From Alphaproteobacteria bacterium (GTDB taxonomy: Bacteria; Pseudomonadota; Alphaproteobacteria; UBA828): a DNA stretch of 64,000 nt. Below, piece by piece: positions 53,722 through 60,666 of the stretch. Both the position numbers and the translations under genes were made by a program. The stretch spans positions 96,001 to 160,000 of the forward strand of contig CAXXMU010000002.1 in assembly GCA_963667785.2 (NCBI GenBank). The letters run 5' to 3'. Below the pieces are notes generated by a model, which worked only from the letters and a program-made list of their open reading frames with translations, searched no databases and was not told the DNA's origin. The first letter of the stretch is position 1. Each line of letters starts with the position of its first letter.

Positions 53722-54333
53722 GTGCGCGCGCTGCGGGCGCTCGGCCTGATCGCGGCACTCGCCCTGGGCGGCGCTCTGGCGGGCGCCGCTCAGGCCGCTT
53801 CGCTCGGCGGCATGGTGCTGGTCGCGAACGAGGGCATGCCCGACCCGCGCTTCCAGGAGACGGTGATCTACATGATCGATCACGACGAAGGCGGCGCCTT
53901 CGGTCTCGTCGTCAACAAGCCCATCAGTACCGGGCCCATCGCCGCGCTCCTGGACCGGCTGCAGATCGATCCGGGCGAGGGGGATGGCGACGAGGTGCAG
54001 GGCTCCATCACCGTGCACTATGGCGGCCCCGTCGAGCCCGAGCGCGGGCTCATCCTCCACTCCGACGACTACGCGATCGAGGGCACCCAGCCCGTCTCCG
54101 CCGGGATCGCGCTGACCGGCCGCACCGACGTGCTGCGCGACATCGCCCACGGCCGGGGTCCGGGCCGCAGCCTGCTCCTCTTCGGCTATTGCGGCTGGGG
54201 GCCGGCGCAGCTTGAGGGCGAGCTCGCGCGCGGCGACTGGACCATCGTCGATGCCGACCCCGACCTCGTGCTGGGCACCGACCACGAGGACAAGTGGCGC
54301 CGCCTGCAACGCGGCGACGGCATCTTCATCTGA
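53722..54333 (+). CDS. YqgE/AlgH (UPF0301) family protein with an N-terminal signal-like segment
   Basis: DPRF..TVIY..DH...GAFGLVVN, GGPV and GYCGWGPAQLEGE motifs. Confidence 0.88.
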   Translation: MRALRALGLIAALALGGALAGAAQAASLGGMVLVANEGMPDPRFQETVIYMIDHDEGGAFGLVVNKPISTGPIAALLDRLQIDPGEGDGDEVQGSITVHYGGPVEPERGLILHSDDYAIEGTQPVSAGIALTGRTDVLRDIAHGRGPGRSLLLFGYCGWGPAQLEGELARGDWTIVDADPDLVLGTDHEDKWRRLQRGDGIFI

Positions 54334-54701
54334 GGCGGTGCGGTCCGCGGCCTCCGGGCACGCATTCGCCAAGGCGGCCCGGCCACGGGCACGGGCGGCG
54401 CGAGAGGAAGATTCTTTTTCGTGCCAGTCAGTTACGCCAAATTGGGTTCGTTTTGCAAAAAAGCCGTTCGACGGCCGTCAGCGCGCGCACAACGCGAACC
54501 GCCCCCCGCCCGTGGTCGGCACCACCTGGCAAGAAAATCCATCGCTCCGGCACTCGTTCAACGCGTCCACCTCCGCTGCCGATAGCGAGTTTCCTGTGCC
54601 TCCCGCGACCGAGCCGGGGCGACGCGCAGGTGAAGGCTTAATAACACTCATCGTTCCCATCCCATGTTATTTATTGTGCGTAGCGAAATGCGGACACATT
54701 G

Positions 54702-56452
54702 TCAGTCCGTGCACCTAGCCCAGCGTCCCCCCCCACTATCTCGATGAAGTCGGCAGTTGGTAGCTCCGCCACTACGACAAGCGTTTAGGGCAGCCCTTTC
54801 TGCTTCTGCTCTTGTGTTTCCCAATCCCGTTTCATAGAAGCAAGAGTTTCTGGTATCACCATACGCCGAGGCCGCGCATAGGGAGCGGCCTGAATAAGCA
54901 CTCCCAAAGTCTTGCCGAAAGACACAATTTACTCCACCAATGCTACGGCATAAATTTATGGCCGCAGCACGAGCATCGCTTCGGCTGGAGTGATTGGAAC
55001 TGATTCCGGCACTATACGCGCAAGTGCGGCCCGGCGCATTCCAGGATTGCGCTATTGCGCCAAAGTAACGGAGCGCGGTCGCACCTCTGACGTCGAAGCT
55101 GAGCTGGGCCGTCAGGCCGCCCGGGTCGCGCGCCGTCACCGTGATCCTCGCCGCGCCGGTCGTGTGAACGCCTGCACCGCGGTGATCGTGAGCGTGCTGC
55201 CCGAGATCGACGCCCGCACAAAGCTCGGCGCGTTCGAACTCGCGCTGTAAGTCAGCCTGTCACGGTCGGGGTCGGAGAAGCGGCTCGAGACGTCGATGGT
55301 CCTGGATTGCCCCACGGTCATATTCGACACGTCGCTGATCCCGCCCTGCACGACGGGAGGGCGGTTGCCGCTAGCCGCACCTCTGACGTCGAAGCTGAGC
55401 TGGGCCGTCAGGCCGCCCGGGTCGCGCGCCGTCACCGTGATCCTCGCCGCGCCGGTCGTGAACGCCTGCACCGCGGTGATCGTGAGCGTGCTGCCCGAGA
55501 TCGACGCCCGCACAAAGCTCGGCGCGTTCGAACTCGCGCTGTAAGTCAGCCTGTCACGGTCGGGGTCGGAGAAGCGGCTCGAGACGTCGATGGTCCTGGA
55601 TTGCCCCACGGTCATATTCGACACGTCGCTGATCCCGCCCTGCACGACGGGAGGGCGGTTGCCGCTAGCCGCACCTGTGACGTCGAAGCTGAGCTGGGCC
55701 GTCAGGCCGCCCGGGTCGCGCGCCGTCACCGTGATCCTCGCCGCGCCGGTCGTGAACGCCTGCACCGCGGTGATCGTGAGCGTGCTGCCCGAGATCGACG
55801 CCCGCACAAAGCTCGGCGCGCTCGAACTCGCGCTGTAGGTCAGCCTGTCACGGTCGGGGTCGGAGAAGCGGCTCGAGACGTCGATGGTCCTGGATTGCCC
55901 CACGGTCATATTCGACACGTCGCTGATCCCGCCCTGCACGACGGGAGGGCGGTTGATGCCCGAGGGTCTCCAAGTGCCTGAGTCGGGCCCGCCGGAAGCA
56001 CAGCCCGAGACCAACACGACGCAATCGGCGCTGGATCCCAAAACGCTTTGGCAATTGCGGATCGCAGCCGAGCGCGCCTCGGCGAGTGAATTTCTTCCGT
56101 GCGGGCTTGCGTGGCAGTTGCCTGAGGAGTTTTGGCCAACACCGACCGCCACACATTGTTCAAATGACCTTGATCTACACCGGGGGAAGGTACCACCTGC
56201 TGCCGCACTTTGTGCCAGTAATGTGCAGCCCTGTCGCGCACCATTCTCTGCACTCGATGCCGACGAGGCGAGGGTTACGATATTGGCCACTGCAAACGAA
56301 CAATCCGACGATAAGGTGTGTGAGACTCCGCCATATCTGGACGAGGGCTGCCCGCCATTACCATTGCCATTGCCACCGCCACCGCAAGCAGAGAGAGTAG
56401 CCGCGAGAACCCCTGCGCAGGCGAGCGCCAGAGACCACCTCATAGACTTCAC
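54702..56452 (-). CDS. Surface lipoprotein: lipobox, DUF4189-like domain, three Ig/cadherin-like repeats, second DUF4189-like domain; 2-bp frameshift in the third repeat
   Basis: LSAC-GGGG lipobox; Cys-rich A...A...C domains at both ends; NRPPVV...FSDPD.D.LTYSASS...ITVTARDPGGLTA repeats; an extra TG at about 55162-55166 relative to the other two repeats splits ORFs 55136..56452 and 54702..55139. Confidence 0.8.
55080..55955. repeat. Three tandem near-identical 294-bp (98-codon) repeats
   Basis: Units start at 55080, 55376 and 55670 (296 bp with the insertion, then 294 bp); only a few substitutions between units. Confidence 0.95.
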
Positions 56453-57606
56453 TCCCCGTTCTCCAAGAGCCGCTTAGGCAACTGAGCGGACATGTTCTCG
56501 CCGTCAAAGTCTCCGGAGTCGTCGACCTTCAGCTCAGGCGTTTCGCGTTCTACGACCTCGATCTCGCCCACATGATCCGCTGAGCGCCACAGCATCCCCG
56601 CCTCGGCCTCGCGGGACGCCGGGTCGCGGCGGCCGAGGCCCTCCCAGCGCAGGTCCGAGCGGTCGAGGACACCCAGCGGGATCGAGACCGACGCGTGCAG
56701 CGCAACCGAATCGTCGCCCGCCCCCACGTCGTCCCAGCCGCCCTGCACCTCGAACCACGGATGCGGCTGCCAGCCGAGGCCGAGGCGCGCCCGCTCCGCC
56801 CACGCGCCCGAGCCGTCCTGGCTCTCCCAGCGCCCGGCAGCGGCGCGCAGGTGGACGGTCGTGGTCAGGTCCGCGCTGTAGGCGAGCTCCGCGCCCGCGA
56901 TCGCCCGCTCCTCGTAGCCATGGTGCCCGGGCCGCCAGTCGGTCGTCGGCATGTAGTTAGGTGAGCGAGCCCTGGCCCCAGCGATCCAGGTACTCGAGCC
57001 CGGTCACCAGCCGCGCGTGCCCCCGCTCGACGTTCTCCTGCACGAACATCGAGGCGCCGATGACCCCGTCGCCCGGCTCCTCGAAGAGCGCATGGCGGTG
57101 CACCGCGCCAAGGCGGACGTCGCTGCGCTGGAAGCCGCGCGCATCGCGCCACCGCGTCACCCCGTTCTGGACGAAGAAGGAGCGCGTCACCGCATCGCCC
57201 TCGACCGAGGAGAGCGCGCTCAGGGCAGGATCACGTCCAGGTCGGCGCTCAGTGTGCCGGTCGACGCGGTGAGCCCGAGCCGGCGGTCGATGTGGAAGTG
57301 CTCGCCGAAGCGCGCCTTGCCGTGGCGCTCGACGAGCTGCAGCGCGCTGTCGGCGAGCCTGGAGAACACCTGCTCGATGGCGCAGTCGGTGGCCGGGGTG
57401 ACGTCGTCCTGCACGTACTGGAGGGTGCCGACGCAGTTCTCGACCCCGAACATGCCGACGCCCCAGTCCCTGGGCACGGCGGCGTGCTCGTCGGCCTGGG
57501 CCGGAAGCGACCCGAGCGCGAGCGCCAGCGCCAGTGCGACAGCCAGCATGGGCAGGGGGCGGGGGAGCCGGTCTCGCAAGCGGCGGTTAGAAATCCGATC
57601 GCGCAT
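56449..57606 (-). pseudogene. Stand-alone inverse-autotransporter (invasin/intimin-type) beta-barrel gene with two frameshifts (pseudogene or assembly errors)
   Basis: Joined frames read signal peptide ... LSADLDVILP|LSA...VRLGAVHR...GASMF....ERGHARLVTGLEYLDRWGQGSLT|YYMPTTDW...YEERAIAGAE..., resembling the invasin RxGxGxEY..D...S.N.Y....W....ERPAxGxD strands; -1 at GGG 57223-57225 and +1 at TT 56957-56958; AGGAG RBS. Confidence 0.65.
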
Positions 57607-57795
57607 CGCACATCTCCTATGCCTACCCGCGATCAACGGTATGCACTTTCGGCGAGCAGATCAATAAGCTTGTCGAATACCGCCCCTGCCTTACCGCCCT
57701 GATTTGGCTGACTTATCCGACTCTTCGATCGGCCGTATCGGAGAATCGACGCGCAGATCGTCGAATTCGGCGCGGGCTGCGGCGCGCGATCGGGC

Positions 57796-60666
<2,871 letters not shown>

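Follow-up and report, generated by a model that had tools for sequence, protein, structure and literature searches.

A candidate split inverse autotransporter: a passenger-less barrel gene paired with a lipoprotein gene in an alphaproteobacterial genome

Introduction

Inverse autotransporters of the intimin and invasin type (type Ve; 4E1S, 4E1T; PF11924) are built of an N-terminal signal peptide, a 12-strand barrel with the protein's own linker in its pore and a short strand beyond, and they carry an immunoglobulin-like (Ig) or lectin passenger on the same chain. Members with only short C-terminal extensions have also been described, and two-partner systems have been proposed for ZirT with ZirS/ZirU, SinH with SinI and Yfr4 with Rat-like proteins (Heinz et al., 2016; PMC4943183). 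In the passage devoted to it, the ZirT case is called a Gordian knot, and how a barrel serves a separate protein is treated as an acknowledged unsolved problem (Heinz et al., 2016; PMC4943183). The locus described here occupies positions 54,702 to 57,606 of a 64,000-nucleotide (nt) stretch of DNA, referred to throughout as the window, from an alphaproteobacterium of the lineage UBA828 (assembly GCA_963667785.2, contig CAXXMU010000002.1, positions 96,001 to 160,000). It comprises a gene for a barrel of this type followed by a gene for a lipoprotein with DUF4189 and Ig-like domains, and is read, with middling confidence, as a conserved two-gene surface module in which the barrel would be the dedicated outer-membrane partner that brings a lipid-anchored, adhesin-like protein to the cell surface or holds it there. 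Two-partner inverse autotransporters are already in print (ZirT/ZirS), and the form with a lipoprotein partner is new.

The barrel resembles intimin and invasin in its N-terminal signal peptide, its predicted 12-strand barrel with the protein's own linker in the pore and the short strand beyond. Unlike them, it bears no same-chain Ig or lectin passenger, ending in a tail of only about 30 amino acids (aa), and no LysM was found in Pfam scans of the barrel family; identity to the solved intimin and invasin barrels is only 14-18%. With the ZirT/ZirS type it shares a barrel gene that precedes a co-oriented gene for an exported Ig-type partner, a partner that resembles inverse-autotransporter passengers, and the same puzzle of a plugged 12-strand barrel serving a separate protein. 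In contrast to ZirT/ZirS, the partner is a predicted lipoprotein with a Gly-rich tether and its cargo includes DUF4189; the window barrel is devoid of Ig domains, and it is instead the partner that is 45-47% identical to the passengers of fused relatives. The hosts also differ, those of the ZirT type being enterobacteria and those found here being uncultured, largely sponge-associated bacteria of many phyla. Neither "lipoprotein" nor "Alphaproteobacteria" occurs in the main text of PMC4943183.

Slam (type 11) systems likewise pair an outer-membrane barrel with lipid-anchored surface lipoproteins, adhesins among them, according to the part of PMC13721041 that concerns them. The present barrel differs in belonging to IAT_beta and not to SlipAM/DUF560, and the Slam homologs of this genome lie elsewhere (contigs C5 and C6). 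Gly-rich tethers are a feature of Slam substrates in Neisseria. As for the cargo, the DUF4189 proteins XAC2611 (Tpf) of Xanthomonas citri and Rv1813c of Mycobacterium tuberculosis belong to the same Cys-rich family of very variable sequences, and the relevant sections of a preprint describe three disulfides formed from conserved cysteines in both (bioRxiv 10.64898/2026.05.09.723464). The same sections present them as single-domain, non-lipidated proteins, one periplasmic and one secreted, with XAC2611 tied to a type IV secretion system (bioRxiv 10.64898/2026.05.09.723464). In contrast, the DUF4189 domains considered here cap a lipoprotein with Ig repeats, or else a passenger, in association with a type Ve barrel. 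Literature combining "inverse autotransporter" and "DUF4189" was absent from the top-ranked matches, and inverse autotransporters were not mentioned in the titles and abstract openings of the DUF4189 literature among the matches listed; joining "inverse autotransporter" with "surface lipoprotein" gave reviews only. A sponge-microbiome study has reported an expressed inverse autotransporter in an alphaproteobacterial symbiont, with no lipoprotein partner in the relevant passage (PMC10947273).

The Barrel Protein

The upstream gene of the pair lies in three pieces in the window, and has an intact counterpart elsewhere in the genome, the 387-aa paralog P0001 on contig C1. In tblastn alignments, residues 1-128 of P0001 map to 57606-57223 with 93.8% identity, residues 129-216 to 57223-56960 in a different frame with 95.5% identity, and residues 218-376 to 56955-56467, in the first frame again, with 82.8% identity. 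The DNA of the two copies is 94.1% identical over 1073 bases and shows exactly two 1-base gaps, at ~57223 and ~56957. A first-pass annotation, made from the letters of the window, had postulated two single-base indels and a repaired barrel protein of about 385 aa with a signal peptide. The alignments to the paralog bear out the indels and the length, and the signal peptide is readable in the sequence, by eye and without a predictor, as an Arg-rich start, an Ala/Leu core and an AQA cleavage site.

When scanned against the Pfam family IAT_beta (PF11924; gathering score 22.3 bits), the third piece of the window gene scored 14.4 bits (E-value, E, 0.03) and the first and second, scanned separately, gave no match; in a genome-wide profile search the window copy was not among the matches at E 0.001 or better. 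Scanning a gene in separate pieces lowers its score. The intact paralog lies above the cut-off, with 35.1 bits (E 1.4e-8) for residues 78-321 on positions 20-258 of the 279-position profile. Across the barrel pieces and their relatives, Pfam scans gave IAT_beta as the only barrel family at or above its cut-off and no match to SlipAM.

Modelled with AlphaFold2 from a 54-sequence alignment, the paralog reached a predicted local distance difference test (pLDDT) value of 81 and a predicted template modelling (pTM) score of 0.73. In the model, a long helix at the N-terminus is followed by the strands of the barrel and by a post-barrel segment that is well defined. The top Foldseek matches of this model in the Protein Data Bank (PDB) were the beta-domains of intimin and invasin (E 6.9e-9 and 1e-8). 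In VIA-align comparisons, Z values of 18.9 (4E1T), 18.4 (5G26) and 18.3 (4E1S) were obtained over residues 101/102-354; the alignments with intimin and invasin cover the model up to residue 354 and reach the last residues of the crystallised chains, while other, unrelated barrels gave Z 13 at best, with the alignment ending near residue 311. The intimin/invasin-type barrel of the first-pass annotation is thus upheld by both the Pfam score and the structure matches of the paralog. As in the intimin and invasin crystals, a 12-strand barrel with its own linker through the pore is predicted; on this model the linker appears to fill the pore, and the last ~30 residues would lie outside the cell. 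By analogy with other inverse autotransporters, the helical N-terminal domain is presumably periplasmic.

In a 20-sequence alignment of the family (A2), conservation runs to the post-barrel motif and is followed by a variable acidic tail of 25-35 aa, and the N-terminal Cys pair is invariant. The alignment also revealed a second length class of ~450 aa, in which the tail is replaced by one small domain, modelled as a beta-sandwich (pLDDT 94-97) with a weak match to Calx-beta (E 0.09). The window polypeptide ends ~30 residues beyond the conserved post-barrel motif with no Ig or lectin passenger, in agreement with the passenger-less barrel originally proposed.

The Lipoprotein Partner

The stop codon of the barrel gene and the start codon of the lipoprotein gene overlap as GTGA at 56452-56449, just as had been read previously, and a 4-nt stop/start overlap is also found at the same junction in three relatives (loci L018, L019 and L020). 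The paralog barrel is likewise followed by a lipoprotein gene, that one without any Pfam family. The window lipoprotein begins with a signal peptide and a lipobox (LSAC), from which lipidation is predicted. With a gathering score of 25 bits for DUF4189 (PF13827), its N-terminal DUF4189 domain is borderline, scoring 21.7 bits in the Pfam scan and 25 bits in the genome search (C2:152000-152284), while the C-terminal one scores 38.6 bits (1.7e-9), with eight Cys counted in its translation. The tandem repeat between the two domains has a period of 294 over 3.0 copies with 99% matches, and the Ig-like repeats match the models Big_9 (5.7e-16), Cadherin_4 (1.8e-11) and He_PIG (5e-8), as expected of the Ig-type repeats first reported. 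The guanine plus cytosine (GC) content of the parts that code for DUF4189 is 0.57-0.59, against ~0.70 in the flanks. In the genome-wide search, DUF4189 was found only in this gene.

The C-terminal part of the protein is 46% identical over 119 aa to the 151-aa partner lipoprotein of a related genome (G003). An intact lipoprotein of the same architecture is also available: P0367, of 518 aa, has a lipobox, DUF4189, two Ig repeats and DUF4189, and it maps on the window with a frame change at ~55165. A search with the window lipoprotein gave 851 matches, mostly through the Ig repeats, and four of the best 120 had DUF4189 as well. The lipoprotein was originally described as one product of DUF4189, three Ig domains and DUF4189. 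Its lipobox, domains and three repeats have been recovered; the single frame has not, because a third break (see below) means that the full protein needs a third read-through.

Fused Relatives

An exhaustive, profile-free homolog search with the barrel yielded 225 cluster representatives, among them long proteins with an N-terminal barrel 36-43% identical to P0001. In two of these, P0151 (1346 aa) and P0141 (1839 aa), with barrels 36% and 41% identical to P0001, respectively, a passenger follows the post-barrel motif directly, without an internal signal peptide, and consists of He_PIG and CARDB or Big_9 repeats with DUF4189 at the end. The Ig repeats of the window are 45-47% identical to those of P0151, and the last window repeat and the DUF4189 domain behind it align in the same order with the C-terminal end of P0151 (39% identity over 155 aa, E 2e-17). 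In addition, the Cys-rich middle domain of the partner lipoprotein of genome G015 is 53% identical to residues 993-1129 of P0151 (E 3e-40). Since the same cargo is fused to the same barrel in relatives, the lipoprotein can be regarded as a detached passenger. The fused forms provide strong evidence, the strongest presented here, that the two genes of the window work together and that their cargo belongs outside the cell.

A 435-aa metagenome protein with DUF4189 and IAT_beta, P0074, was considered as a further fusion and rejected, because a lipoprotein signal peptide and lipobox persist inside it; the gene call probably runs through two neighbouring genes, first one for a barrel and then one for a DUF4189 lipoprotein.

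Conservation of the Pairing

The barrel was detected in seven of 61 related genomes, all of the window's genus (its own genome and six of 20 others), and in none of the 40 outside the genus. A scan of one genome per species revealed 46 related loci in 39 records, all of them metagenome-assembled genomes, which are labelled as Alpha- and Gammaproteobacteria, Binatia, Nitrospirales, Thermodesulfobacteriota, Poriferihabitaceae and others. At 39 of the 46 loci, a lipoprotein gene starts between -4 and +65 nt past the barrel stop; 37 of these were recognised by script and two by eye (L036 and L062), the barrel of L062 being frameshifted and its gap counted from the later frame. Locus counts are given without a statistical test, and kin among the loci are not independent. 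The linkage of short barrels to a downstream lipoprotein, a survey of which had been suggested at the outset, is therefore found in most loci. The module, first placed in alphaproteobacteria, is indeed present there and is not specific to them, given the many phyla in the record labels.

A total of 41 partner lipoproteins, 39 from the linked loci and two from related loci, were aligned. The Cys is invariant, and Gly is conserved in at least 90% at the second and third residues after it. In the window's own genome, a Gly-rich tether is present on only 16 of 244 open reading frames (ORFs) with a crude lipobox; it is uncommon there, though not unique to barrel-linked lipoproteins. Four Gly-tethered lipoproteins of ~300-330 aa in this genome (C1:1005668, C2:354795, C6:1140531 and C6:1141788) have a similar motif soon after the tether and look like a paralog family, the two on C6 being adjacent.

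Among the relatives searched, all five DUF4189 lipoprotein genes with a Gly tether adjoin a barrel (G000, G003, G015, G016 and, on contig C228, G019). Eight other DUF4189 genes in related genomes have no barrel within the flanks fetched. Read by eye, six of their products start with ordinary signal peptides, L068 has a lipobox without a Gly tether and L069 no recognisable signal; several of the six with ordinary signal peptides also seem, by eye, to have a peptidoglycan-binding-like segment. This comparison, which leaves out three weak matches, rules out that all DUF4189 genes are barrel-linked, as the eight without a Gly tether have no barrel nearby, and it indicates that the link is specific to the lipoprotein class of DUF4189 genes.

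Some loci depart from the simple layout. Two Gly-tethered lipoprotein genes near one barrel, or convergent ones, occur at L029 (5533-6705 and 7283-8815), L028 (5308-7002) and L061 (5284-6373). Two of the three barrels of one genome lie in frames of ~1200 aa that reach far upstream (L024, 1550-5161; L025, 1622-5218), which may be a real N-terminal extension or merely an open GC-rich frame. In G019 (L011, 1959-5336), the barrel ORF lacks ~140 N-terminal residues and stands behind an 869-aa ORF that looks autotransporter-like, by eye, from its C-terminal residues. Transposase-like ORFs (also by eye) abut the 5' end of the barrel in G003 (L012, 4843-8458), and one occupies the place expected for the partner gene in G004 (L013).

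Cargo Diversity and Probable Cassette Exchange

The cargo families found among the 41 partners were DUF4189 (18), CARDB (7), N_BRCA1_IG (5), DUF11 (4), Big_9 (4) and He_PIG (3), in lipoproteins ranging from 126 to more than 1231 aa. When loci within one genome or from close relatives are compared, the barrels are 88-100% identical and the signal peptides mostly 68-86%, while the mature lipoproteins beside these near-identical barrels are 26-66% identical, mostly over part of their length. Similarly, homology between the window barrel and its paralog ends at 56546, ~30 codons before the stop, so that the barrel tail and the lipoprotein differ together. These comparisons indicate that the cargo is traded in cassette fashion and changes at a much higher rate than the barrel does.

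A 60-aa ORF downstream of the lipoprotein gene may record one such exchange. Its final 40 aa match the same number of residues at the end of the 151-aa G003 partner with 58% identity (E 1e-14), and it scores 16.6 bits against DUF4189. Within the Logan contigs from four runs that were used as a check against public data, one sponge-metagenome contig (run X5) joins 54603 to 56603. The ORF may therefore be the leftover 3' end of an older, shorter DUF4189 partner that was displaced by the present cassette. A 42-bp stretch at 54600-54641 is 90% identical to C1:781169-781210, and loose contig ends occur at 54600 in runs X1, X3 and X5; the stretch may be a short shared element or a recombination edge.

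Proposed Arrangement and Its Alternatives

The locus would represent one copy of a split type Ve (inverse) autotransporter. Its first gene would supply a signal peptide, a short helical N-terminal domain, a 12-strand barrel with its own pore linker and ~30 variable residues beyond. The second gene, translationally coupled to the first, would encode the passenger of the fused relatives, refitted with a Gly-rich tether behind a lipoprotein signal peptide, and the lipid anchor would stand in for the covalent link to the barrel. The window cargo would comprise three cadherin-like Ig domains with a DUF4189 domain on either side. The identity of the barrel, the linkage of the genes, the existence of fused relatives and the variability of the cargo are shown by the comparisons above, whereas display at the surface, and a need for the barrel in it, are steps that we infer.

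A predicted complex of barrel and lipoprotein, which the first-pass annotation had recommended, was obtained for the L019 pair. It scored 0.52, against 0.00 for the best of three controls, with at least 46% contact agreement between runs and a partner pLDDT of at least 78. The mark for this score is reached by 58 of 80 solved complexes and by two of 110 mismatched pairs; scores at 0.60 or under include only 7 of the 80 solved complexes and both of the passing mismatches. The lipoprotein alignment used for the complex had only three rows, and a homolog search with the 154-aa L019 lipoprotein found only itself, because the partners are too variable for a word-based search. The prediction therefore stands above its controls and falls in the weak-support band, with no interface reported.

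Besides this weak complex score, several observations weigh against display through the barrel. The paralog model places the barrel's own linker in the pore, and no room for a second chain is expected in a pore of 12 strands, in the account given for intimin and invasin (PMC4943183). The sole studied Gram-negative DUF4189 protein is presented, in the sections of the preprint that deal with it, as periplasmic and disulfide-rich (bioRxiv 10.64898/2026.05.09.723464). An adjacent lipoprotein gene is missing at four of the 46 loci (L022, L040, L042 and L059) and present only in convergent orientation at three. The window's own genome encodes two SlipAM/Slam (PF04575) homologs of ~80 bits each (C6:1124071-1124823 and C5:20990-21745), and at least 14 of its other Gly-tethered lipoproteins are away from any barrel; another export route thus exists. 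Lastly, with three frame breaks, the module may be inactive in this copy.

The existence of another route leads to the alternative that the lipoprotein reaches the surface by, for instance, a Slam (type 11) translocon, with the barrel acting as a docking or anchoring partner, through its exposed tail or the small C-terminal beta-sandwich of the 450-aa class, or being merely co-regulated. The two SlipAM homologs and the tethered lipoproteins without an adjoining barrel are in its favour. It is also consistent with the pore being plugged by its own linker in the model and with the variable tail changing along with the lipoprotein cassette, as seen from the end of paralog homology at 56546. However, the Slam genes adjoin neither the window locus nor the paralog, the pairing with an inverse-autotransporter barrel holds at 39 of the 46 loci across phyla, and this very barrel family includes fused relatives in which the same cargo is the passenger. 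This alternative is accordingly considered improbable.

Less probable still is a lipoprotein that stays on the periplasmic face of the outer membrane, where it would bind the helical N-terminal domain of the barrel as a plug, stabiliser or regulator, with no display. This would agree with the periplasmic location and three predicted disulfides of the characterised Gram-negative DUF4189 protein, as given in the sections cited above (bioRxiv 10.64898/2026.05.09.723464). It would also agree with the conserved helical N-terminal domain, with its invariant Cys pair and no LysM found, and with the occupied pore of the model. Against such a location stand the cargo types (CARDB, Big_9, He_PIG and DUF11) and the sizes above 1200 aa, both typical of extracellular rods. 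The same domains form the C-terminal passenger of the fused relatives, and a type Ve passenger is extracellular, as established for intimin and invasin; cargo that varies far more than the barrel likewise fits exposed proteins better. The fused forms and the kinds of cargo thus lower the likelihood of a partnership confined to the periplasm.

A broader reading of this surface module is that it constitutes an undescribed, horizontally mobile display system, in which a minimal type Ve barrel would serve detached, lipid-anchored passengers across phyla in sponge microbiomes, with cargo swapped as cassettes that leave remnants behind. It might act in host or neighbour recognition, and possibly in protection against contact-dependent attack, a suggestion prompted by the one known function of DUF4189. 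This wider proposal is speculative and, as a whole, rather unlikely. If true, it would provide a natural minimal system for working out by what means a two-partner inverse autotransporter gets a separate protein past a barrel that is plugged. Within this family, the same barrel and cargo occur naturally in both split and fused form, the barrel protein is very small, and the partners have one simple feature in common, a predicted lipidated Cys followed by a Gly tether; the question is thereby open to direct test. The family is also a pointer to surface proteins that are widespread and diversify fast among uncultured bacteria associated with sponges, and it gives DUF4189 a second genomic context besides type IV secretion.

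Frame Breaks in the Window Copy

Whether the breaks in the window copy are real is a question apart from the mechanism. At break 1 (~57222-57223), one base that is present in the intact paralog, and in related contigs of runs X1, X2 and X5, is missing from the window. At break 2 (~56957), the window carries one additional base that neither the paralog nor related contigs have. Self-alignment of the tandem repeats revealed break 3 (~55163-55166), where repeat 3 has two extra bases compared with repeats 1 and 2; this break was absent from the first-pass annotation, and the window copy thus has three breaks rather than two. Among the Logan contigs, none that is identical to the window reaches across 56957 or 57222. 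All four runs are without contig cover in the bin 55177-55287, and none of the contigs bears on the 2-base insertion.

It is possible, at slightly under even confidence, that the window pair consists of recently decayed pseudogenes, with the three breaks being real mutations and not assembly errors. Three breaks fall within 2.9 kb while long neighbouring genes stay open, such as the 1004-aa secA ORF; there is no identical public contig across both breaks of the barrel gene, and the intact paralog could make the window copy dispensable. On the other hand, all three breaks lie in repeated DNA, the likeliest place for consensus errors, two of them within the DNA that has a second copy on C1 and the third within the tandem repeat with its 99% matches, and break 1 falls at a site where related contigs vary (C or G). 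Also against real breaks, in run X1 a contig identical to the lipoprotein cassette of the window overlaps by 30 nt with a barrel contig free of both breaks, a contig that differs from the window at 25 other positions. The coding differences between window and paralog, 59 in number, fall 11, 11 and 37 on codon positions 1, 2 and 3, and comprise 32 synonymous and 27 non-synonymous changes. This bias towards third positions indicates that the window barrel has been under selection until recently at least, and any decay would be recent. Programmed frameshifting or phase variation was rejected, with nothing in support and break sites that are not long simple repeats.

Layout of the Locus

The minus strand carries all features of the module (Table 1), which is flanked by secA (60810-57796) and, on the opposite strand, by an AlgH-like gene. 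No promoter-like sites were found in 54300-57900. The terminator-like consensus was matched at three sites, against 2.0 expected, and one of these matches stands just downstream of the 60-aa ORF.

Table 1. Coordinates of the barrel-lipoprotein module and adjoining features in the window.
Feature	Position	Strand	Description
Barrel piece 1	57223..57606	-	ATG start at 57606, signal peptide, helical N-terminal domain with conserved Cys pair, first barrel strands
Barrel piece 2	56960..57223	-	Strands; frame break 1 at its 5' end, ~57222-57223
Barrel piece 3	56449..56958	-	Remaining strands, pore linker, post-barrel strand, ~30-aa variable acidic tail; break 2 at ~56957
Barrel TGA stop	56451-56449	-	Sequence reading
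Lipoprotein start	56384..56452	-	GTG 56452-56450 over the barrel stop, signal peptide, lipobox LSAC (Cys codon 56386-56384)
Mature lipoprotein N-terminus	55956..56383	-	Gly/Asn-rich tether, then N-terminal DUF4189 (~56284-56000)
Three tandem 294-bp repeats	55080..55955	-	One Ig-like domain each; frame break 3 in repeat 3
Lipoprotein 3' part, shifted frame	54702..55139	-	End of repeat 3 and C-terminal DUF4189 (~55064-54744)
60-aa ORF	54478..54660	-	Putative DUF4189 remnant; match to the C-terminus of the G003 partner
Terminator-like hairpin and T run	54462..54476	-	Just 3' of the 60-aa ORF; consensus match only

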